Below are positions 27,754 through 40,820 of a DNA stretch of 64,000 nucleotides, one piece after another. The stretch spans positions 3,017,600 through 3,081,599 of the forward strand of contig CBDDFZ010000001.1 in the NCBI GenBank assembly GCA_965227515.1, written 5' to 3'. How positions within the stretch are numbered: the stretch's first letter is position 1; each line of letters begins with the position of its first letter. Source of the DNA: Alphaproteobacteria bacterium. GTDB lineage: Bacteria; Pseudomonadota; Alphaproteobacteria; CALKHQ01. The translations under genes and the position numbers were made by a program. Below the pieces are notes generated by a model. It ran no database searches, was not told where the DNA came from, and was given only the letters and a program-made list of their open reading frames with translations.

Positions 27754-29346
<1,593 letters not shown>

Positions 29347-29980: not shown

Positions 29981-31087
29981 TTACGGGAAGTAGAAGCTGC
30001 CGTCCCAACTGCCATAGCTGTCGGAAGACACACCATTCTGCACCGAGGCGTCATAGGACCCCTGGCCCGCCGCCGGCACGGCCGTGATCACACCGCCGGC
30101 CAAGCCGACGACACCGGCATGCAGCGCCGCGGTGCACAGGCTGGAATCGTCGGTGTAGATGCCGCTGCCCCAGACCGCGCCGCCGAAGGTGTCCGGCGCA
30201 CAATGGCAGGTCAGCGGCGCCGAGGTGCCGCGCAGCTCCATCATGTTGCCGGGGCACGCCTTGGCGTCTGCGTCGGTCAGCAACTCGGCGGGCACGTCGA
30301 CATTGGGGAAGACATAGCTCCAGTTGAAGGCGGGATAGTCGGCGCTGACGACCCCGTTGCTCTCTGTCCCCTGGTAGCTGTCCTGCCCCGGCGCGCCCTT
30401 CACCACGATCATGCCGCCGCCGGGGCCGACGGCGCCGGCATGCAGGGCCGCGGCGCACAGCGGTGAATCGTGGGTGTAGGTGCCGGTGCCCCATACGGTG
30501 CCGGTCATGGCATCGGGGGCGCAGTAGCAGATGATGGTCAGTGTGGAGTCGACATGCGCCCCGAAAGTCGCCGGGCAGACGGCGTTCGTATCCAGCGCCA
30601 CGATGCTGCCAACCGGCGGGCCGCTGGGCGGCACCGAGACCGCCGGGCCCGGCAGACCGCCGCCATCGGCCAGGCAGTCGCCGACATACCAGCGCAGGCC
30701 CTGCAGGCCGGCACCGTTGAAATTGGGATTGCTCCAGTCCGGGAATTGCTGCTCGTCGGTGTAGAAGCCCCACATCCAGCGGTGCTTGTCGGCGCCGTAC
30801 TGGGCCCAATTGTCCGGCTCGAAATTGGAGAAGATGCCACCGGCGGCGAACAGGCCGTACTGATTGATCCGCCAGGGCTTGCGGCCATTGAACTCGGTGT
30901 CGCCGTTGTAGGCGTTGAGGGTGGATGCGGCGTAGTCGATCCACTCGTCGATACAGGCGCGGCCCGTGTCGGTTTCCCAGGCGTCCTGTGCGCTGGACGG
31001 TGCAGCAGACAGCGCAAGAAACCCGGCCCCGAGCACGCCGGCAAGCCAAGGTAATGCGCGGTGCGGTTTGGTTTCGCCTGTCCTCAT
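29981..31087 (-). CDS. secreted protein with two tandem LCCL domains
   Basis: Signal peptide (…LALSAAPSSAQD). Two repeats of the LCCL pattern C.C.PD..G.VWG(T/S)G.YT.DS.LC.AALHAG.VG..GG.(I/V), at ~aa 187-240 and ~275-330. Confidence 0.75.
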   Translation of the reverse strand: MRTGETKPHRALPWLAGVLGAGFLALSAAPSSAQDAWETDTGRACIDEWIDYAASTLNAYNGDTEFNGRKPWRINQYGLFAAGGIFSNFEPDNWAQYGADKHRWMWGFYTDEQQFPDWSNPNFNGAGLQGLRWYVGDCLADGGGLPGPAVSVPPSGPPVGSIVALDTNAVCPATFGAHVDSTLTIICYCAPDAMTGTVWGTGTYTHDSPLCAAALHAGAVGPGGGMIVVKGAPGQDSYQGTESNGVVSADYPAFNWSYVFPNVDVPAELLTDADAKACPGNMMELRGTSAPLTCHCAPDTFGGAVWGSGIYTDDSSLCTAALHAGVVGLAGGVITAVPAAGQGSYDASVQNGVSSDSYGSWDGSFYFP

Positions 31088-31135: not shown

Positions 31136-33127
31136 TTATACCAAATCCACGTCCGACACGATCTCCACGATGGCCGGGCCGTCATAAGCCAGTGCCTCTT
31201 GGATCGCCTCGTCCAGGTCCCCGGCCTTCGTCACCCGCCGGCCGTGGCCGCCGCACAACCGGGCGTAGGAGGCGAAGCTGGGGTTGTGCAGGCTGGTCTG
31301 CCACACCTGCCATTGCCCGGCGCGCTGTTCCTTGGAGATCTTCCCGAGTTCGCTGTTGTTGAGCAGGATGTGGGTGATGTCCATGCCGTACTTCACGGCG
31401 GTGGTGAACTCGCCCATGTACTGGCCGAAGCCGCCGTCGCCGCTGACCGACACCACCTTGCGGCCGGCCAGGTCGGGGATGTCGCGGGTCGCCGCCCAGG
31501 CGCCCATCGCGGCGGGGAAGCCGAAGCCGATGGAGCCGAGGTAGCCGGACATCATCACCGCCTGGCCGGCGCATTCGAAATAGCGGCCGAACGAGTAGGT
31601 GTTGTTGCCGACGTCGACCGCGATCACCGCGTCGTCGGGCACCTGGCGGGTCATGGCAGCGAAGACGGCAGCGGACGCGATGCCCTTGCCGCGGTCCTCG
31701 TCGATCCGCTTGGCCTTTTCCGCGCGCCACTCGGCCCAGCGCGCGGCGATCTCTTCGCGCTGGTTGACGGCGTCGGGCCGCGCCGGCAGGCGCTCGCGCA
31801 TCAGGGTGGCGGTCACCGCCACGTCGCCCCACACCGGCACCGCCACCGGGTGGAACTTGCCCAGGTGCATGCGATCGAAGTCGACCTGGACGATGGGCTT
31901 CGACGGCTCGATGCCGGTGTGGTTGGAGAACGAGGACCCGAACGCCAGGATCAGGTCGCACTCGTTCATGAACCAACTGGCGATGGGCGTGCCGGAGCGG
32001 CCGAGCACGCCGGCGGCGAGCGGATGGGTGTCGGCGATCTGGCCCTTGGCCTTGAACGTGGTCAGCACCGGCGCGTCCAGCGCCTCGGCCAGTGCCACCA
32101 CGTCGGCCATGCCCTCCTTGGCGCCGTAGCCGACGATGACGATGGGGCGCTTGGCGCCCGCAATCGCCGCCATGGCGTCGTCCAGCGCCTCGGCGGGCGG
32201 CGAGATCGCGGGTGCGGCCACCCGCCCGCCGGGGCCGGAGGCCTTGGCGCCCTCCGCCCGTGGGATGGTCTGCACGTCGTCGGGGAAGATCAGGTGCGCG
32301 ACATCGCGCTCCACCACCGCGTTCTTCGCCGCCAGCGTCATCAGCTCGGCGTGGTTGGAGGTGTGGAGCACGGTCTGGCTGAACCGGCTGACCGCCGCGA
32401 ACGCCGAGGCGAGGTCGATCTCCTGGAACGCGCCGGGCCCGAACACCTGCACGTTGACCTGGCCGGTCAGCGCCAGCACCGGCGCGCGGTCGACCTTGGC
32501 GTCCCACAAGCCGGTCAGCAGGTTGGTGGCGCCGGGGCCGGCAATCGCCAGGCAGGCCGCCGGCTTGCCGGAGAGCTTGGCGTAGCCGGAACAGGCAAAA
32601 GACGCAGCACCCTCGTGACGGATGCCGATGAACTCCAGATTGCCCTTGGTCTCCTGCACCCGCAGCGCATCGGCCAGCCCCAGATTGGAGTGGCCGACCA
32701 TGCCGAACACGCGCTTGACGCCCCAGTTGACCATGGTTTCGGCCATCACGTCGCTGATGGTCGCGGTGCGCTCCGGCTCCGCCTCGACGCCGACATAGAT
32801 GCCGTCGTCGCGAACCTCGACCGGGTACATCTCCTGGCCGGTGTCCTCATGGCCGCCGGGCGGCAGGCCGGTCAGCGGATCGAAGTCCCAGCCGTGCCAG
32901 GGGCAGCGCAGCCAGCACTTGCCCTCCACACCGGTCTCAATCGAGCCTTCGCCCAGCGGACCGCCCTGGTGCGGGCAGCGGTTGTCCATCGCCGCGTACT
33001 GGCCCTGGAAGTGGGTGAGGGCGACGCTGACGCTGCCGGCGACGGCGGTCTTGACCCGGCCCTCGGCCAGTTCGCCCGGCTCCGCCACCTTGTGCCAGTC
33101 CCGATCAGGCGCGGCTGTGTCGGACAT
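31136..33127 (-). CDS. Rieske [2Fe-2S] domain fused to a thiamine-pyrophosphate-dependent enzyme (acetolactate synthase / pyruvate oxidase-like)
   Basis: N-terminal Rieske motifs CPHQGGPL ... CPWHGWDF. Then TPP_enzyme N/M/C domains with GDGGFGQYMGEF...LLNN (GDG-x-NN TPP motif). 663 aa. Confidence 0.85.
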   Translation of the reverse strand: MSDTAAPDRDWHKVAEPGELAEGRVKTAVAGSVSVALTHFQGQYAAMDNRCPHQGGPLGEGSIETGVEGKCWLRCPWHGWDFDPLTGLPPGGHEDTGQEMYPVEVRDDGIYVGVEAEPERTATISDVMAETMVNWGVKRVFGMVGHSNLGLADALRVQETKGNLEFIGIRHEGAASFACSGYAKLSGKPAACLAIAGPGATNLLTGLWDAKVDRAPVLALTGQVNVQVFGPGAFQEIDLASAFAAVSRFSQTVLHTSNHAELMTLAAKNAVVERDVAHLIFPDDVQTIPRAEGAKASGPGGRVAAPAISPPAEALDDAMAAIAGAKRPIVIVGYGAKEGMADVVALAEALDAPVLTTFKAKGQIADTHPLAAGVLGRSGTPIASWFMNECDLILAFGSSFSNHTGIEPSKPIVQVDFDRMHLGKFHPVAVPVWGDVAVTATLMRERLPARPDAVNQREEIAARWAEWRAEKAKRIDEDRGKGIASAAVFAAMTRQVPDDAVIAVDVGNNTYSFGRYFECAGQAVMMSGYLGSIGFGFPAAMGAWAATRDIPDLAGRKVVSVSGDGGFGQYMGEFTTAVKYGMDITHILLNNSELGKISKEQRAGQWQVWQTSLHNPSFASYARLCGGHGRRVTKAGDLDEAIQEALAYDGPAIVEIVSDVDLV

Positions 33128-33289
33128 GCTGCCTCCTTTTGCACTTTGCCAGAATATTTGACATTACTGGATCGTGGCGGGCGCGAAAGCCCCTCACAAT
33201 GACTTAACCATTTCGTGGCCTTCCGCCGCGCCGTGCAACCGCTTATTCTGCGCGATGCATCGCCCCAACTCCGGCACCATTCCCTACAG

Positions 33290-33523
33290 ATGACCGCGGC
33301 CGAGATCATCGTCGAAATTGTAGTCTGGTATGGCTATGCCGGTTGCGCCGTCGCGGCCGCATTCCTGCTGGTCGGCATCGACCGGATCGATCCGGGGGCG
33401 GGCGGTGCCTATCTGTTCCGCGTGCTGTTGGCGCCTGGCGTGATCGTGCTCTGGCCGCTGGTGCTGTGGATCTGGCTGCGGCGCGAGATGTCCGGGCGCC
33501 CCGCATCCGACGAGACCGCCTGA
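33290..33523 (+). CDS. small membrane protein (2 predicted TM helices)
   Basis: 77 aa (MTAAEIIVEIVVWYGYAGCAVAAAFLLVGI...VIVLWPLVLWIWL). Stop overlaps the next small ORF (ATGA-type). Confidence 0.4.
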   Translation: MTAAEIIVEIVVWYGYAGCAVAAAFLLVGIDRIDPGAGGAYLFRVLLAPGVIVLWPLVLWIWLRREMSGRPASDETA

Positions 33524-33681
33524 TGCAACGACGCCACCGCGTGGCGCACAGGCGCGCCTGGCTGCTGATCGCGGTCGTGCTGCCGGTGCTGTTCGTGCTT
33601 GCCCTGGCGGTGCGGCCGGACCTGCCGGTGGACGAGGACGCCCAGCAGTTTCGTGCTCAGCACATGGACGGCGAGGGCTAG
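33523..33681 (+). CDS. small membrane protein (1 TM helix)
   Basis: 52 aa (RRAWLLIAVVLPVLFVLALAV). Translationally coupled to its neighbours. Confidence 0.35.
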   Translation: MQRRHRVAHRRAWLLIAVVLPVLFVLALAVRPDLPVDEDAQQFRAQHMDGEG

Positions 33682-33684
33682 CCG

Positions 33685-34743
33685 GTGGGCGTGCGCTACC
33701 GCCCGGTTCAGTGGAACCGCAACAAGTACGTATACGACATCGTGCTGATCGTGCTGGTGGTGGCCTACATCTGGCTGTTCATCATGCTGGCGCCGGACCT
33801 GCTCGACTTCCAGCGCCCGGTCGACCGCTGGATCGTGCGCATGCGCGCGTTCGGCACCTGCGCGTTCCTGATGCTGACGCTGATCCTGTGCATCGGCCCG
33901 ATGGCCCGGCTCGACAGGCGCTGGCTGCCGCTGCTCTACAACCGGCGCCATTTCGGCGTGCTGACCGCGTTCGTGGCGGCGGCGCACCTGATCGCGGTGC
34001 TGGACTGGTATCACTCGTTCAGCCCGACCGCGCCGTGGGTATCGCTGCTCACCAGCAACACCGCCTACGACAGTTTCGCCGGCTTCCCGTTCGAGGCGCT
34101 GGGCCTGTTGGCGTTCGGCATCCTGCTGGTGATGGCCGCCACCAGTCATGACTTCTGGCTCAACTTCCTCGGCCCGCCGCTGTGGAAGGGCCTGCACATG
34201 CTGGTCTACCTGGCCTATGCGGCGGTGGTGATGCACGTGTCGCTGGGGCTGTTGCAGTCCGAGCAGCATCCGTTCTTCGTGATCATGGTGGCGGCGAGCC
34301 TGGTCGCGGTGATCGGCCTCCACCTGATGGCCGCGCGCAAGGAGCGGCGGCGCGAGAACGACACCGCCTCGGTTGCCGAAGGCGACTGGATCGACGCCGG
34401 CCCGGTCGGCGCGCTGGAGCCGGACCGGGGCAAGGTGGTGGCGCTGGAGGATGGCGAGCGGATCGCGCTGTTTCGCTCCGGCGACAAGGTCGGCGCGCTG
34501 GCCAATGTGTGCGCGCACCAGAACGGCCCGCTGGGCGAGGGGCGCATCATCGACGGCTGCGTCACCTGCCCATGGCACGGCTTTCAGTACCGGTTGAACG
34601 ACGGTTGCTCGCCGCCGCCGTTCACCGAGAAGGTGGCGACCTATCGCGTGCGGCTGGCCGGCGACCGGGTGCAGATCGACCGGCGGCCGCTGCCCGCCGG
34701 CACGCCGGTGGACCTGGCGACGATCCCGGAGGACCTGCGATGA
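33685..34743 (+). CDS. ferric-reductase-like transmembrane domain (heme-b type, MsrQ/YedZ-like) fused to a C-terminal Rieske [2Fe-2S] domain
   Basis: About 6 TM helices with conserved His residues (AAHLIAVLDWYH, HMLVYLAYAAVVMH). C-terminal CAHQNGPLGEG...CPWHGFQY Rieske motifs. Confidence 0.8.
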   Translation: MGVRYRPVQWNRNKYVYDIVLIVLVVAYIWLFIMLAPDLLDFQRPVDRWIVRMRAFGTCAFLMLTLILCIGPMARLDRRWLPLLYNRRHFGVLTAFVAAAHLIAVLDWYHSFSPTAPWVSLLTSNTAYDSFAGFPFEALGLLAFGILLVMAATSHDFWLNFLGPPLWKGLHMLVYLAYAAVVMHVSLGLLQSEQHPFFVIMVAASLVAVIGLHLMAARKERRRENDTASVAEGDWIDAGPVGALEPDRGKVVALEDGERIALFRSGDKVGALANVCAHQNGPLGEGRIIDGCVTCPWHGFQYRLNDGCSPPPFTEKVATYRVRLAGDRVQIDRRPLPAGTPVDLATIPEDLR

Positions 34744-35513
34744 CCGACCGCGACCGCAAGCCCAGCCGTGATGCGTTCTTCGTCGGCTACCTGCCGGTGC
34801 CAAAGCCGCTGGCGCTGTTCCTGGCCGGGCTGGTCGGCGTGCTGACCTGTTTCGCGGCGGGCGCGGCCCTGGCCCTGGCGCTCTCGCAAAGCGACCCCGG
34901 CGACGCTCATGTCGACGGCCCGGCCGAGATCCACACCGGCTATCTGTCCGTCGATCCCTATCCGTTGCTGCACCTGCCGCCCGACGATGCGCACCCGCTG
35001 GGCCGCACGTTGCCGATGGCCGGCATCGGCAAGATCGGCATCCCGGCGGAGGCCGAGGCGCTCGCCGGGCAGTGGGTCGATGCCAGAGGCGTGTTGCGCA
35101 CCCGCGGCGCCCACCAGTTGTTCGAGACCCGCGGCCGCGACCCCATCGTCGTCGCCGCCGAAGGTGGCGCGGTACCCGGCAACTTCGATCCCGTGGCGGT
35201 CGAGGATCTGGGCGAGGTCACCGTGCGCGGCGAGATCGTCGATCCGAAGTGCTTCCTGGGCGCCATGCGGCCCGGTTGCGGCAAGATGCACATGGCCTGC
35301 GCCAACCGCTGCCTGCTGGGCGGCGTGCCGCCGATGCTGGCGTCGTTCGGCGCGGAAGACGCATTCGAGATGTTCCTGCTGACCGACGAGGACGGCAACG
35401 ACATCACCGAACAGGTGCTGGACTGGACCTCGCTGCCGGTGTCGGTGACAGGGGCGCTGGAGCGGCGCGGTGACCTGTTCGTCCTCAAAGTCACAGACAT
35501 CGAGGCGCTGTAG
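34740..35513 (+). CDS. hypothetical protein with an N-terminal membrane anchor and a C-x7-C-x6-C-x3-C motif
   Basis: Start overlaps the preceding stop (ATGA). Cys cluster CFLGAMRPGCGKMHMACANRC. Confidence 0.55.
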   Translation: MTDRDRKPSRDAFFVGYLPVPKPLALFLAGLVGVLTCFAAGAALALALSQSDPGDAHVDGPAEIHTGYLSVDPYPLLHLPPDDAHPLGRTLPMAGIGKIGIPAEAEALAGQWVDARGVLRTRGAHQLFETRGRDPIVVAAEGGAVPGNFDPVAVEDLGEVTVRGEIVDPKCFLGAMRPGCGKMHMACANRCLLGGVPPMLASFGAEDAFEMFLLTDEDGNDITEQVLDWTSLPVSVTGALERRGDLFVLKVTDIEAL

Positions 35514-35519
35514 ACGGCC

Positions 35520-35738
35520 ATGCCCGCCATTCGACACATCGTCGGCCTCGCCGTCTTCCTCGCCATGCTGGCGCTGAGCTACCTGTTCTGGGGCGAGATC
35601 ACCGGCTGGCTGCGCGGCACCTTCCTCAGCGACATGCCGGTGCTGGCGTTCGTGTTCGCCTTCATCGTCGTGTTCTGGGTACTGGAATGGCTGGGCGGCA
35701 AGCTCGCCGCGCTGATGCCGGACGGCGCCGATCACTGA
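35520..35738 (+). CDS. small membrane protein (2 TM helices)
   Basis: 72 aa and hydrophobic. Sits between two cluster genes on the same strand. Confidence 0.4.
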   Translation: MPAIRHIVGLAVFLAMLALSYLFWGEITGWLRGTFLSDMPVLAFVFAFIVVFWVLEWLGGKLAALMPDGADH

Positions 35739-35762
35739 GTACAAGAATATGCGCAAGGGGAA

Positions 35763-37379
35763 ATGCCGATGAACAAGGTCGCCATCATGGCCTGGGACGA
35801 TCTGCCCGACCGCGACCCGCAATATGCGCTGGTCGCCAATGTCGACCTCGTCGTCGTGCGCTATGACGACAAGGTGTCGGTGCTCTATGGCCGCTGCCAC
35901 CACCGTGGCGCGCTGCTGGCCGACGGCTTCATCAGCGGCGAGAACCTGATCTGCGGCGTCCACCATTGGGACTACCGCTACGACACCGGCATCTCCGAGT
36001 ACAACAACGCCGAGATCCTGGACAAGTTCAGCGCCTGGGTGGAGGACGGGCAGGTCTGGGTCGACGCCGATGAGATCGCGGCCTGGGAGACCGACCACCC
36101 GCAGCCCTATAATCGCAAGGCCTATCTGGGCCTCTATGCCGACATGCACGGGGCCGAGGAAGAGCCCCACGTCAAGCTGATCCAGGGCTATGCCCGCAGC
36201 GGCCTGAAGAAGACCGGCCACCACGGCGTGGTCGACGCCATGGGCGTGCCGCGCCAGGACCTGCCGACCTGGGACGACATCCAGTTCATCACCGCGCAGT
36301 TGCATCGCCCGCCGCTGCTGGATGAGGAGGACGTCGGGTCGGAGGTGGTGATCGGCCCCAACGCACAGAAGCCGCTGAAGCTCGATATCCCGCTGCTGGT
36401 CTCCGACATGAGCTTCGGCGCGTTGTCGGAGCGGGCCAAGGTCTCGCTGGCCAAGGGCGCCGAGCAGGCCGGCACCGGCATCTGCTCCGGCGAGGGCGGC
36501 ATGCTGCCCGACGAGCAGGAGGCCAACACGCGCTACTTCTACGAGCTGGCGTCGGCCCGGTTCGGCTTCAGCATGGACAAGGTGAAGCGCTGCCAGGCGT
36601 TCCACTTCAAGGGCGGGCAGGGCGCCAAGACCGGCACCGGCGGCCATCTGCCGGGCAACAAGGTGGTCGGCCGCATTGCCGAGGTGCGCGGCCTGGAGGA
36701 AGGCACGCCGGCGGTCTCGCCGGCCCGCTTCCCGGACTGGACCACCACCACCCAGATCCGCGACTTCGCCAACGAGGTGCGTGACGCCACCGGCGGCATC
36801 CCCATCGGCTACAAGCTCTCCGCCCAGCACATCGAGAAGGACATCGACGCAGCCCTGGAAGTCGGCGTCGACTACATCATCCTGGACGGGCGCGGCGGCG
36901 GCACCGGCGCGGCACCCATCATCTTCCGCGACAACATCTCGGTGCCGACGATCCCGGCGCTGGCCCGCGCGCGCCGCCATCTCGACCGGCAGGGCCGCGG
37001 CGACATCACGCTTGTGATCACCGGGGGCTTGCGCAAGCCGGCCGACTTCGCCAAGGCGCTGGCGCTGGGGGCCGACGCCATCGGGCTGTCGAACGCAGCG
37101 CTACAGGCCATCGGCTGCCTGGGCATGCGCGCCTGCCACACCAACAACTGCCCGGTCGGCATCGCCACCCAGAAGCCGCACCTGACGTCCCGCATCGATA
37201 TCGACAAATCGGCGGCGCGGCTGGCTCGCTTCTTCGAGACGGCGGTGGAGCTGATCAAGATTCTGGCCCGCGCCTGCGGCCACCGCCATTTGAACCAGTT
37301 CTCGGTCGACGACCTCGTCACCTGGAAGCGCGACATGGCCGACCTCTCCGGCGTCGCTTACGGCGGGGTAGGGGCGTAG
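35763..37379 (+). CDS. Rieske [2Fe-2S] domain fused to a glutamate-synthase-type FMN-binding/Fe-S domain (GltS-related protein)
   Basis: N-terminal CHHRGALL...CGVHHW Rieske motifs. C-terminal GltS central-domain homology, including the CHTNNCPVGIATQ Fe-S/FMN signature and the GGTGAAP / ILDGRGGGTG barrel. Confidence 0.85.
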   Translation: MPMNKVAIMAWDDLPDRDPQYALVANVDLVVVRYDDKVSVLYGRCHHRGALLADGFISGENLICGVHHWDYRYDTGISEYNNAEILDKFSAWVEDGQVWVDADEIAAWETDHPQPYNRKAYLGLYADMHGAEEEPHVKLIQGYARSGLKKTGHHGVVDAMGVPRQDLPTWDDIQFITAQLHRPPLLDEEDVGSEVVIGPNAQKPLKLDIPLLVSDMSFGALSERAKVSLAKGAEQAGTGICSGEGGMLPDEQEANTRYFYELASARFGFSMDKVKRCQAFHFKGGQGAKTGTGGHLPGNKVVGRIAEVRGLEEGTPAVSPARFPDWTTTTQIRDFANEVRDATGGIPIGYKLSAQHIEKDIDAALEVGVDYIILDGRGGGTGAAPIIFRDNISVPTIPALARARRHLDRQGRGDITLVITGGLRKPADFAKALALGADAIGLSNAALQAIGCLGMRACHTNNCPVGIATQKPHLTSRIDIDKSAARLARFFETAVELIKILARACGHRHLNQFSVDDLVTWKRDMADLSGVAYGGVGA

Positions 37380-37665: not shown

Positions 37666-38469
37666 CTAAGGCGACGGCTGGTTCCAGGGCGGTGCGTTCC
37701 AGTACTGCTGCGAGCGTTCGACCGCGTCGCAGTCCACCGGCTCGCTGGCCTGAACGGGCACGACCGCCACCGTGGGCGGCTGGTCCCCGGCCACTTCCAG
37801 CACCAGCTTGCGGCGGATGGTGGCGGCCAGATCGTCGGGGTCGGAGACCGGAATGACGAACGCCCCCGGCCCGCCGACCACGCAGTCCCAGTAGTACCGG
37901 TCCAGCGGCACGCTGGCGACCGACGGGCGGATCATGATGGGCAAGCCGTTGATGACGAAACCGGCGTCGACCGCGATGTCGCGGGCATAGGTCGCCGGAA
38001 TGCGGTCGCGGTTGGCGCCGTCGCCCGACACGTCGATGATGCGGCGGGTGCCTTCGAAGCCGTTGCCCCGGAACAGGCCGGTGCCGAACGCCAGCGCGCC
38101 CGAGATGGACGTGCCGCGGATGAACGCGATCGGCTGCGCCTCTAACTCGGCCACGAAAGCCAGCGCACTCTCCGCACCGTCGATCAGCCGCCACGGCACC
38201 ACCACGACCTGGCGATCCGGCCCCGCCCATTCCATGTAGCTCAGCGCGATCTGGCCGAGGAAGCCCGCCTCGACCGCGCTCAGGAATTCCGGGTGTTGCA
38301 GGGCCTGCAGGTAGCCCGCGCGCTGCACCGCGTGTTCCTGGGCGTCCATCGAGCCGGAGACGTCGACGGCCAGCAGCAGTTCGATGTCGACGGCCATGTC
38401 TTGGGCCCGGGCCGGACCGAGGCCGGCGACCAGCGCCGCAACAATGCCCAGCATGCGAACTGCGTGCAT
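37666..38469 (-). CDS. DUF1194 domain-containing protein (vWA-like, secreted)
   Basis: Signal peptide. LLLAVDVSGSMD MIDAS-like motif. The conserved DUF1194 C-terminus (YYWDCVVGGPGAFV) is typical of the alphaproteobacterial family. Confidence 0.75.
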   Translation of the reverse strand: MHAVRMLGIVAALVAGLGPARAQDMAVDIELLLAVDVSGSMDAQEHAVQRAGYLQALQHPEFLSAVEAGFLGQIALSYMEWAGPDRQVVVVPWRLIDGAESALAFVAELEAQPIAFIRGTSISGALAFGTGLFRGNGFEGTRRIIDVSGDGANRDRIPATYARDIAVDAGFVINGLPIMIRPSVASVPLDRYYWDCVVGGPGAFVIPVSDPDDLAATIRRKLVLEVAGDQPPTVAVVPVQASEPVDCDAVERSQQYWNAPPWNQPSP

Positions 38470-38741: not shown

Positions 38742-40820
38742 ATGCCACGCGATCCCGATCCCGTCTTCGTTCCCTCGGTCTGCCCGCACGATTGCCCCAG
38801 CACGTGCGCGCTGGAGGTGGAGCGCATCGACGAGCGCACCATCGGCCGCGTGCGCGGTGCCGCAGACAACACCTACACGGCGGGCGTCGTCTGCGCGAAA
38901 GTCGCGCGCTACCAGGAGCGCCAGCACCATCCCGACCGGCTGACCCGGCCGCTGGTCCGCACCGGCGACAAGATGGTGGGGCGGGAGGCGTTTCGGGAGA
39001 TCGGCTGGGACGAGGCGCTTGATATCGTCGCCGACCGCTTCAAGGCGGTGGTGGCGGCCGACGGCACCGAGGCGGTTTGGCCGTATTTCTATGCCGGTAC
39101 CATGGGCCACTTGCAGCGCGACGGCATCGAGCGGTTGCGCCATGTCATGCGCTATTCCGGCCAGAAGAGCACCATCTGCGTGGCGCTGTCGGATGCCGGC
39201 TGGCTTGCCGGTGCGGGCATCAAGCGTGGCGCCGACACCCGCGAGATCGACGAGGCCGATCTGATCGTGGTTTGGGGCGGCAACCCGGTCGCCACCCAGG
39301 TCAACGTGATGACCCACGTCACCAAGGCCCGCAAGGCCCGTGGCGCCAAGCTGGCGGTGGTCGACCCTTACCGCACCGGCACGGCGGAGGCGGCCGACAT
39401 CCACCTGGCGCTGAGGCCGGGCACCGACGCGGCACTCGCCTGCGCGGTGATGCACGTGATGTTCAGGGACGGCACCGCCGACCGCGACTACATGGCGCGC
39501 TTTGCCGACGATCCGGCCGGGCTGGAGGCGCATCTGGCGACCCGCGGGCCGGACTGGGCTGCCGAGATCACCGGCCTGACGGTCGAGGAGATTGAGGCGT
39601 TCGCCAGGATCTATGGCACCACCGACCGCGCCTTCATCCGCCTCGGCTACGGCTTTTCGCGTGCACGCAATGGGGCGGCCAATATGCACGCGGCCGCCAG
39701 CCTGCCGGTGGTGGGCGGCAAGTGGCGGCACAAGGGCGGCGGCGCGCACTATTCGAATGCGCCGGGCGCCTTCTACCCGCTCGACAAGACCTTCATCGAG
39801 GGCAAGGACCGCATCGACCCGTCGATCCGGGTGCTGGACCAGTCGCGCCTGGGCCCGGTGCTGACCGGCGACCGCCGCGACCTGGGCGACGGCCCGCCGG
39901 TGAACGCGATGCTGATCCAGAACACCAACCCGGTGGTGGTCTGCCCGGAATCGCTCAAGGTGCGCGAAGGCTTCCTGCGCGACGACCTGTTCGTCTGCGT
40001 CCACGAGCAGTTCATGACCGAGACCGCGGCGATGGCCGATATCGTGCTGCCGGCCCAGACCTCGATGGAATATGCCGACATCTACACCTCCGGCGGCCAC
40101 ACCCACCTGCACATTACCAGGCCGGTGGTGGAGGCGCCCGGCGAATGCCGCTCCAACCACGCGGTCATCTGCGCGCTCGCCAAGCGGCTGGGCGCCGAGC
40201 ACCCGGCGTTCGACATGGACGACTGGGAAGTGCTGGACGAGACATGCCGCCAGTCGGGCCTGCCGCCGGCCGACGAATTCGCGGCCGCCAAGTGGATCGA
40301 CTTCGTCAAGCCGTTCGAGGAGGCGCATTTCCTCACCGGCTTCGGCCATGCCGACGGCAAGTGGCACTTCAAGGCGGACTGGCAGGGCATGGGCGATGTC
40401 GACGGGCGGCTGTCGCCGTTCCCCGACCACAATCTGGTCTATGACCTGACCGACGACGACCACCCGTTCCGGATGGTGACGGCGCCGGCGCGCCAGTACC
40501 TGAACACCAGCTTCACCGAGACGCCGACCAGCAGGAAGCGCGAGGGCCGGCCGACCGCCAAGATGCACGCCGACGACATGGCGGCCCTGGGGGTGCGCGG
40601 TGGCGACCGGGTGCGGCTCGGCAACCGGCTGGGCTCGGTGGTCGTGCATGCGGCCGCCGCCGATGGCCAGCGGCCGGGCACGGTGGTGGTGGAGGGGATC
40701 TGGCCGAACCACGCCTTCGAGGAGGGGATCGGCATCAACACGCTGATCAGCGCCGAGCCCGGGCTGCCGGCCGGCGGCGCCGTGTTCCACGATACCGCGA
40801 TCTGGGTGCGGGCGGCTTGA
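38742..40820 (+). CDS. molybdopterin-dependent oxidoreductase (MopB superfamily) with an N-terminal [4Fe-4S] motif
   Basis: CPHDCPSTC cysteine motif in the N-terminal Fe-S domain. Molybdopterin and C-terminal beta-barrel domains follow. I chose ATG 38742 over the track's 38673. Confidence 0.85.
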   Translation: MPRDPDPVFVPSVCPHDCPSTCALEVERIDERTIGRVRGAADNTYTAGVVCAKVARYQERQHHPDRLTRPLVRTGDKMVGREAFREIGWDEALDIVADRFKAVVAADGTEAVWPYFYAGTMGHLQRDGIERLRHVMRYSGQKSTICVALSDAGWLAGAGIKRGADTREIDEADLIVVWGGNPVATQVNVMTHVTKARKARGAKLAVVDPYRTGTAEAADIHLALRPGTDAALACAVMHVMFRDGTADRDYMARFADDPAGLEAHLATRGPDWAAEITGLTVEEIEAFARIYGTTDRAFIRLGYGFSRARNGAANMHAAASLPVVGGKWRHKGGGAHYSNAPGAFYPLDKTFIEGKDRIDPSIRVLDQSRLGPVLTGDRRDLGDGPPVNAMLIQNTNPVVVCPESLKVREGFLRDDLFVCVHEQFMTETAAMADIVLPAQTSMEYADIYTSGGHTHLHITRPVVEAPGECRSNHAVICALAKRLGAEHPAFDMDDWEVLDETCRQSGLPPADEFAAAKWIDFVKPFEEAHFLTGFGHADGKWHFKADWQGMGDVDGRLSPFPDHNLVYDLTDDDHPFRMVTAPARQYLNTSFTETPTSRKREGRPTAKMHADDMAALGVRGGDRVRLGNRLGSVVVHAAAADGQRPGTVVVEGIWPNHAFEEGIGINTLISAEPGLPAGGAVFHDTAIWVRAA

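Follow-up and report, generated by a model that had tools for sequence, protein, structure and literature searches.

In the ferric-reductase-domain systems characterised so far (NOX, FRE, STEAP and MsrQ-MsrP), electrons end up on an extracytoplasmic acceptor. NOX, FRE and STEAP proteins possess paired histidines in the third and fifth helices, receive electrons at a cytoplasmic C-terminal domain and release them to O2 or to Fe(III)/Cu(II) outside, while in MsrQ-MsrP (YedZ-YedY) a heme-b membrane protein passes electrons to an extracytoplasmic partner encoded by an adjacent gene. Rieske-to-Rieske cluster transfer is a working principle in dioxygenase systems, and the flavin mononucleotide (FMN)/3Fe-4S domain of ferredoxin-dependent glutamate synthase (Fd-GltS) takes single electrons from a [2Fe-2S] ferredoxin and works reductively. 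Here, a window of 64,000 nucleotides was analysed (the whole stretch, positions 3,017,600 to 3,081,599 of contig CBDDFZ010000001.1, Alphaproteobacteria bacterium assembly GCA_965227515.1). Seven tightly packed genes at 31136-37379, labelled F, B1, B2, C, D, E and A, make up a widespread and so far uncharacterised system, a variant of the transmembrane electron transfer of the ferric-reductase family whose inputs and output are without precedent. The locus is tentatively read as a modular electron-transfer system in which a Rieske-to-Rieske relay would run from F via C to D, with A as a second port; this reading is given close to, though not quite, an even chance of being right.

Three of these genes, F, C and A, lie within 6.2 kb, and each joins a Rieske [2Fe-2S] domain to its own kind of redox module (a thiamine pyrophosphate (TPP) enzyme, a Ferric_reduct membrane domain and a glutamate-synthase domain, respectively). 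These architectures were proposed in an original prediction made from the DNA letters, and the Pfam matches for all three lie above gathering scores. That prediction also held that no pathway of this kind had been described, and a full-text literature search found none; nor did it find a paper describing the cluster, D, or a function for any of the fusions. The one listing of the Ferric_reduct-Rieske architecture that was found, in PMC3591440, gives it as domain model 'M4', in passages that state no function. In source databases, A and F appear under generic names ('glutamate synthase-related protein', 'pyruvate oxidase' or 'thiamine pyrophosphate-binding protein').

Domains were called with Pfam at gathering scores and NCBIfam equivalog cut-offs were used for finer assignment, while residue conservation was read from 82 homologues of C, 49 of A and 37 of F. 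The Rieske domains of F (E 6.8e-15; PF00355, 55.2 bits), C (E 4.4e-13; 49.4 bits) and A (E 1.5e-11; 44.5 bits) exceed the PF00355 cut-off of 20.3 bits. Their ligands (C51, H53, C75 and H78 in F; C276, H278, C295 and H298 in C; C45, H47, C64 and H67 in A) are invariant in the homologues, being at least 97% conserved in all three proteins, and the predicted CxH/CxxH motifs are thus borne out as Rieske folds. The three domains share 27-35% identity and are therefore not recent copies of each other. Their best matches, by NCBIfam and by structure, are dioxygenase-type Rieske ferredoxins; those of ring-hydroxylating dioxygenases, which are low-potential soluble proteins, are most similar to the domains of C and F, and are the best solved relatives of the domain of C. 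Unlike in the dioxygenase systems, the fusion partners of the Rieske domains here are flavoenzymes and a heme membrane protein. The ligand boxes (CPHQGG/CPWHGW in F, CAHQNG/CPWHGF in C, CHHRGA/CGVHHW in A) are unlike those of bc1 Rieske proteins, which are CTHLGC/CPCHGS with extra disulfide cysteines. Assignment to a Rieske oxygenase system was rejected, as Pfam found no catalytic mononuclear-iron domain in any of the seven genes. A bc1/b6f complex was likewise dismissed: the membrane protein is of Ferric_reduct type, and its Rieske domain, with boxes CAHQNG and CPWHGF, follows the sixth helix and is predicted to be cytoplasmic.

The membrane domain of C matches Ferric_reduct (PF01794, E 1.1e-10, 42 bits against a cut-off of 28). 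H89 and H101 on the third predicted helix and H171 and H184 on the fifth are invariant in the homologues, a pattern expected for the ligands of two b hemes in a ferric-reductase domain, and two hemes are predicted. Topology was assessed by hydropathy and by counting lysine and arginine residues on the predicted loops. These number 15 on the inner loops versus 3 on the outer ones, a charge distribution that places both termini of C, and hence its Rieske domain, in the cytoplasm by prediction and the body of D in the periplasm. Compared with NOX, FRE and STEAP, the input domain is a Rieske domain instead of an FAD/NADPH one (FAD, flavin adenine dinucleotide), and the reducing power would come from separate Rieske-tagged flavoenzymes and not from NADPH. 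C was not assigned to NOX/FRE because its C-terminal domain is Rieske and not an FAD/NAD(P)H-binding dehydrogenase. Nor was it assigned to MsrQ: it matches NF003831 weakly (38.5 bits versus a cut-off of 130), no MsrP-type gene is present in the cluster, and the nearby molybdopterin enzyme is not syntenic.

Like MsrQ, C is a ferric-reductase-domain heme-b membrane protein that would pass electrons to an extracytoplasmic partner encoded beside it. Here, that partner, D, is no molybdoenzyme, and C itself carries four conserved histidines and a Rieske domain. The N-terminus of D is positively charged, and a single long helix (residues 22-49) leads into two beta barrels; the confident AlphaFold2 model of the protein (predicted local distance difference test, pLDDT, 90.4) shows these as tandem barrels resembling the oligonucleotide/oligosaccharide-binding (OB) fold. 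No match to any curated family or solved fold giving a function was found for D, which represents a new protein family with no curated model. A profile search of 1.84 billion proteins returned 2,789 representative relatives at E <= 1e-3 (approximately 2,800 at 50% identity), and at least 582 loci were found in a one-genome-per-species collection. Alignment of 36 diverse relatives showed K170, C171, M176, H184, C187 and C191 to be invariant, and in the model these residues are placed on a helix-loop-helix that forms an insertion in the second barrel. This Cys/His/Met set may be a metal or redox site. The original prediction had noted a motif C-x7-C-x6-C-x3-C in this protein. The first spacing is in fact x8 (C171-x8-C180-x6-C187-x3-C191), and three of the four cysteines are conserved, C180 not being among them, together with the histidine and methionine.

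C and D are tightly linked. Of the best 80 of the at least 582 D loci, 77 have C immediately upstream of D, and one of the remaining three is at a contig edge. Two representatives of Ferric_reduct-Rieske-D fusion proteins, of 600 and 618 amino acids, were also identified, one of them encoded behind B1- and B2-like open reading frames (ORFs). For such a fusion to make topological sense, the Rieske domain and the soluble part of D must face opposite sides of the membrane, and the two fusions, which are independent, match the predicted topology. Small membrane proteins accompany this pair, as had been predicted. By tblastn over 87 loci (L001-L087), relatives of B1 were found just upstream of C in 80 and relatives of B2 between B1 and C in 30. 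B1 has no Pfam or NCBIfam match, contains a conserved loop (IDRID..GAY.FR.LL.PG.) and aligns to the N-terminal two thirds of a 121-residue Roseovarius gene product, and B2 corresponds to the C-terminal third of the B gene in those genomes where it is fused. The two are thus a single gene of 121-131 amino acids in Roseovarius and Ahrensia, and are split in Granulosicoccus and in closer relatives of the window. One B homologue gave a weak, below-cut-off match to cytochrome b561 (E 8e-4), which was put down to membrane composition. A small two-helix membrane gene usually follows D: an 88-89-residue equivalent of E is present after D in L001 and L004 and its family in 44 loci, and the E of the window is weakly similar in sequence to the others (8 loci at E < 0.01).

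The catalytic part of F matches TPP_enzyme_N, TPP_enzyme_M and TPP_enzyme_C (E approximately 1e-32 each, above gathering). Its nearest solved structure is E. coli PoxB (3eya, E 1.7e-66), aligned over PoxB residues 4-526 of 572, followed by acetolactate synthase I, plant AHAS and Lactobacillus pyruvate oxidase (E 1.2e-53); catabolic AlsS scores much lower than the PoxB-type enzymes. F shares with PoxB and the Lactobacillus enzyme the three-domain TPP fold, and the catalytic glutamate (E172) and the GDG-x24-NN motif (G563-D564-G565...N590-N591) are retained and invariant in its homologues. It differs in its N-terminal Rieske domain and in ending 6 residues past PoxB position 526, so that the last ~46 residues of PoxB, which include its membrane-binding C-terminal segment, have no counterpart; hydropathy found no hydrophobic segment in F. 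PoxB and pyruvate oxidase are electron-donating FAD enzymes, AlsS is FAD-free, and acetolactate synthase I and plant AHAS also bind FAD. The FAD-containing relatives score best, and F may likewise be an FAD enzyme. The best NCBIfam match is the pyruvate oxidase model PRK08611 (383 bits versus a cut-off of 742), PRK09124 gives 300 versus 792, and with about half of any cut-off F is below equivalog level. A role as biosynthetic acetolactate synthase was rejected. The homologues listed are 71-81% identical, have the same architecture and include members of Nitrospirales and Woeseiaceae. F is also listed in a 90%-identity protein cluster with 51-residue hypothetical proteins of Microcoleus (the representative and other members), which looks like a clustering artefact.

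A matches Glu_synthase (PF01645, E 6.7e-89, 299 bits), corresponding to residues 854-1161 of the GltS large chain. Its motif C452-x5-C458-x4-C463 aligns with the CxxxxxCxxxxC cluster cysteines of the Azospirillum and Bacillus enzymes (C452 and C463 at least 97% conserved, C458 at least 95%). A QGAK stretch and the invariant R309 also align with GltS, including Fd-GltS, and are putative 2-oxoglutarate-binding residues. Fd-GltS likewise has an FMN domain with a 3Fe-4S cluster fed by a [2Fe-2S] protein. In A, that protein is fused as a Rieske domain, and of GltS only the FMN domain is present: Pfam finds in its 538 residues only Rieske and Glu_synthase, and no amidotransferase, central or GXGXG domain. 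With these domains missing and a score of 128 bits against GltB (NF008730, cut-off 1047), A was rejected as an ordinary glutamate synthase. Hydropathy found no hydrophobic segment in A, and the homologues listed, from across Alphaproteobacteria, are 75-81% identical. By equivalog scores and by missing domains or partners, the cluster belongs to none of MsrQ, NOX/FRE, PoxB and GltS.

Gene order was compared in the 80 D-centred loci, of which 56 have full 10-kb flanks, and in the 13 F-centred metagenome loci that extend 4 kb or more to each side; neighbours were sought by tblastn, and absence refers to the 10 kb around the centre gene. Within the 56 loci, A and F are both present in 19, A only in 13, F only in 7 and neither in 16. 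In the metagenome set, A accompanies F in 10 of 13 loci, 4 of them with C-D and 6 without, the order seen most often being A then F on the same strand. The D-centred loci show six or more gene orders, including A-C-D-F, C-D-A, F(-)A-C-D and A-F-C-D. The Roseobacter group has A-B-C-D-E-F on a single strand, Roseovarius rhodophyticola (L001), Pseudosulfitobacter sp. SM2401 (L054) and Roseobacter sp. EG26 (L075) carry A-B-C-D-F, a Lentisphaeria contig C-D-F and a Bacteroidota contig only B-C-D. In Roseobacter cerasinus AI77 (L021) and Ruegeria sp. HKCCD8929 (L055), B-C-D alone was seen within 10 kb. The hosts include the Roseobacter group, Pseudohongiella, Cellvibrionaceae, sponge symbionts, Planctomycetota and Nitrospirales, and the membrane genes were seen in Alpha- and Gammaproteobacteria, Planctomycetota, Lentisphaeria and Bacteroidota. 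The closest relatives of the window's cluster proteins are from unclassified Alphaproteobacteria and Rhodospirillales metagenome-assembled genomes (MAGs); these have the string B1-B2-C-D-E-A and no F within 10 kb, so the divergent F seen here is one more independent juxtaposition.

The genes thus recur together across phyla, as expected from the original prediction. They do not form the single self-contained relay that it envisaged: the cluster consists of two separable modules, a soluble one made up of A and F and a membrane one made up of B-C-D-E, each of which also occurs alone and which are often, not always, merged. Merging is seen across Alpha- and Gammaproteobacteria and Planctomycetota, and the clustering is not due to chance. 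Identity to the proteins of the window is 65-81% for A and F, 44-63% for C and 32-43% for D. In a Nitrospirales MAG (L090:8144-12007), A and F are 75% and 74% identical to those of the window, far above cross-phylum expectation, which would imply very strong constraint or horizontal transfer of the pair.

From the domains, cofactor ligands, predicted topology and the C-D and A-F linkages, we infer that the Rieske domains exchange electrons with each other and that flow is outward, and it is proposed that F, C and A each carry their own low-potential, ferredoxin-type Rieske domain as a docking and transfer element. F would oxidatively decarboxylate a 2-oxoacid such as pyruvate, its flavin passing single electrons to the N-terminal Rieske domain; it is placed as donor because PoxB-type oxidative decarboxylation is effectively irreversible and strongly reducing. 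C would take up the electrons on its cytoplasmic Rieske domain and pass them over the inner membrane by way of two stacked b hemes, outward because of the ferric-reductase-family precedent. D, anchored beside C or fused to it, would receive them at its Cys3/His/Met site in the periplasm and hand them to an acceptor, for example a metal ion, O2 or a protein, with B and E as small membrane subunits of the module. A (Rieske to 3Fe-4S to FMN) would be a second substrate-level port on the same Rieske network; its substrate would be glutamate or a related amino or imino acid if it works oxidatively, and a 2-imino acid if it spends the electrons of F on reduction. The 13 loci with A and C-D and no F suggest that A can donate, for instance by oxidising glutamate. 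The flow from TPP or FMN enzyme via Rieske to heme b, as predicted originally, fits both the predicted topology and the family precedent.

Several points weigh against this relay. Rieske-to-Rieske docking is assumed, and the putative FAD of F is deduced from its best-scoring relatives. No cofactor fold can be recognised in D, whose conserved Cys/His set could have a structural role. Canonical GltS runs reductively, A could run in either direction, and loci with only A and F are explained just as well by F reducing A. The membrane module stands without A or F within 10 kb in the 16 of 56 loci noted above, including those of Planctomycetota and Bacteroidota; conversely, the Nitrospirales locus has A and F side by side in divergent orientation and lacks B, C and D within 10 kb, and A+F without C-D within 10 kb was also found in L092, L106 and L150. 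As each module is found alone, neither strictly needs the other.

These last loci would be accommodated equally well by a closed cytoplasmic couple, in which F oxidises pyruvate or another 2-oxoacid and reduces A directly from Rieske to Rieske, A in turn driving the reductive amination of 2-oxoglutarate or reducing another imine, with B-C-D-E a separate, often co-located system or an overflow sink only. Such a couple would amount to an analogue, oxygen-tolerant and independent of NAD(P)H, of the path from pyruvate:ferredoxin oxidoreductase through ferredoxin to Fd-GltS. It would agree with the adjacency of A and F without C-D within 10 kb in Nitrospirales and in most of the long F-centred metagenome loci, with the normally reductive GltS FMN/3Fe-4S domain and its single-electron supply from a [2Fe-2S] ferredoxin, and with the higher conservation of A and F relative to C and D. 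The couple is nevertheless unlikely: 13 of the 56 D-centred loci, the closest relatives of the window included, carry A and C-D with no F within 10 kb, 7 more carry F and C-D with no A, one genome has A and F apart, each alone, and the lack of an amidotransferase domain or partner leaves the ammonia supply of A unclear.

Unlikely to a similar degree is a respiratory dehydrogenase complex in which C serves as a heme-b anchor reducing quinone, in the manner of succinate dehydrogenase anchors or PoxB, A and F feed the quinone pool, and D, B and E are structural or assembly proteins that perform no chemistry in the periplasm. The nearest solved relative of F, PoxB, is a pyruvate:quinone oxidoreductase. 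By its title, a 2025 study (PMC12525009) reports an unexpected ubiquinone cofactor in the ferric-reductase-domain protein MsrQ. A periplasmic function is argued for, however, by the invariant Cys/His/Met site on the predicted periplasmic D and by the strict C-D linkage, fusions included, and the four conserved histidines of C suggest two hemes spanning the membrane, which are not needed just to reach a quinone site. Inward flow, from a periplasmic donor to D, through the hemes and Rieske domain of C to a reductive A, with F as an alternative cytoplasmic donor, would suit the reductive homologues of A and its place in the same gene string as B-C-D-E in the lineage of the window. This is judged very unlikely, since the transfer would be uphill to low-potential Rieske, 3Fe-4S and FMN centres for most periplasmic donors, and no characterised ferric-reductase-domain system is known to import electrons. 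That three unrelated Rieske genes, or leftovers of a Rieske oxygenase catabolic cluster, lie together by chance is scarcely credible: the general abundance of Rieske genes in Alphaproteobacteria speaks for it and nothing more, whereas Pfam finds in the three proteins only Rieske and their own redox modules and no oxygenase catalytic domain, the same set recurs in several phyla and many gene orders, and C-D fusions exist. Synteny already contradicts it.

If the relay from F via C to D works as proposed, metabolism would be connected to the cell envelope in a new manner, with each enzyme bringing its own Rieske plug in place of NAD(P)H, quinones or soluble ferredoxins. The cluster brings in at least one new family, that of D, whose conserved site is a candidate for metal binding or redox activity. 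The system is common and occurs, among others, in ecologically important marine heterotrophs, where it could bear on iron, copper or oxygen reduction outside the cytoplasm or, alternatively, on NAD(P)H-independent amino-acid synthesis under oxic conditions. In its fullest form, the relay would be a hitherto unrecognised, NAD(P)H-independent export chain of aerobic bacteria and a bacterial counterpart of NOX/FRE: Rieske-tagged flavoenzymes would oxidise a 2-oxoacid and an amino acid and supply the Rieske/two-heme protein, and D would reduce Fe(III), Cu(II) or O2. We regard this specific form as distinctly unlikely. The enzyme behind extracellular superoxide in the Roseobacter clade is described as 'yet to be identified' (PMC6414704), and within the export chain just outlined a chain ending in D is a speculative candidate for that source.

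Table 1. Genes, domains and motifs of the cluster (positions in the window)
Feature	Position	Strand	Description
F	31136-33127	-	663 aa; predicted Rieske-TPP flavoenzyme (Pfam)
Rieske domain of F	32792-33097	-	aa 11-112; ligands CPH...CPWH; PF00355 residues 11-87, PF13806 residues 10-112
Divergent spacer between F and the B1-to-A operon	33128-33289		162 bp; presumed promoter region
B1	33290-33523	+	77-aa membrane protein; two hydrophobic helices
B2	33523-33681	+	52-aa membrane protein; single helix
C	33685-34743	+	352 aa; Ferric_reduct and C-terminal Rieske; six hydrophobic helices
Segment of C with four invariant predicted heme-ligand His	33949-34236	+	aa 89-184
Rieske domain of C	34387-34677	+	aa 235-331; ligands CAH...CPWH; PF00355 residues 235-320, PF13806 residues 235-331
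D	34740-35513	+	257 aa; signal-anchored, soluble part predicted periplasmic
Invariant motif of D	35247-35312	+	K170 C171 ... M176 ... H184 xx C187 xxx C191; candidate metal/redox site
E	35520-35738	+	72-aa membrane protein; two hydrophobic helices (hydropathy)
A	35763-37379	+	538 aa; Rieske and glutamate-synthase FMN/3Fe-4S domain
Rieske domain of A	35778-36074	+	aa 6-104; ligands CHH...CGVH; PF00355 residues 6-76
3Fe-4S-type Cys motif of A	37116-37151	+	aa 452-463

The plus-strand genes are closely spaced (Table 1), with 3 nt between B2 and C, 6 nt between D and E and 24 nt between E and A. Of the two ATGA overlaps originally predicted, the one between C and D is present (34740-34743, 4 nt); the other, placed at 33520-33526, is TGATG at 33521-33525, a 1-nt overlap of B1 and B2. 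A promoter/terminator scan of the divergent spacer found no consensus sigma-70 site and no terminator, and Rfam found no riboswitch or other RNA family in the window. When the 80 loci were compared by eye, a promoter-like element TTGGCA-N17-TATCGT was common upstream of the cluster in the lineage of the window; no regulator is assigned to it. Four loci of the Roseobacter group (L021, L032, L046 and L075) have in common the word (A)TGTGATTTGG, approximately 70-110 nt before the first cluster gene, and TGTGATTTGG, as read by eye and with no regulator assigned, may be half of a regulator binding site.

The original prediction had also placed a molybdopterin oxidoreductase (38742-40820, +) in the context of the cluster. 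This protein, the sole molybdoenzyme of the window, possesses Molybdop_Fe4S4, Molybdopterin and Molydop_binding domains, with the 4Fe-4S domain N-terminal and no obvious twin-arginine signal by eye, and falls below all NCBIfam equivalog cut-offs (best hit formate dehydrogenase alpha, 230 bits versus 666). By tblastn it lies beside the cluster in none of the other loci so searched, and its association is not conserved. A DUF1194 gene (37666-38469, -), convergent to A, has counterparts in three other loci (L008:11035-11733, L157:1678 and the end of L089), each no more than 10 kb from A, F or D, a count too low to call it linked. Both genes are bystanders outside the system.

When the D-centred loci were screened for other conserved genes nearby, only A to F and their antisense shadow ORFs came up. 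Three other families recur near A and F and are absent from the window: a DUF5996 protein (~280 aa, e.g. L129:4230-5078) between A and F in 26 loci, a Na_H_Exchanger protein (426 aa, e.g. L113:7628-8908) beside A in 33 loci of the genome and metagenome sets, and a DUF1622 membrane protein (121 aa, e.g. L142:9545-9910) after F in 15 loci, the last also annotated near C-D in L006. These may belong to the system, hinting at a link to ion or pH homeostasis. In Tepidisphaeraceae (Planctomycetota, L005:13933-17412) and Puia (Bacteroidota, L006:3-3139), C-D lies within a few kb of a MIP channel, a GMC oxidoreductase and a tandem-glyoxalase protein, a shared trio that could be due to chance or to a shared transferred block. 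Directly downstream of F in the window, a 368-residue protein with a hydrophobic N-terminus and two LCCL domains is encoded (29981-31087, -; PF03815, E 3.7e-35), which was not seen beside the cluster in other loci. Further along the same strand, an ORF of 516 amino acids (27754-29304, -) with the motif GGIDPHTH reads like a dihydropyrimidinase/D-hydantoinase, as judged by sequence only.

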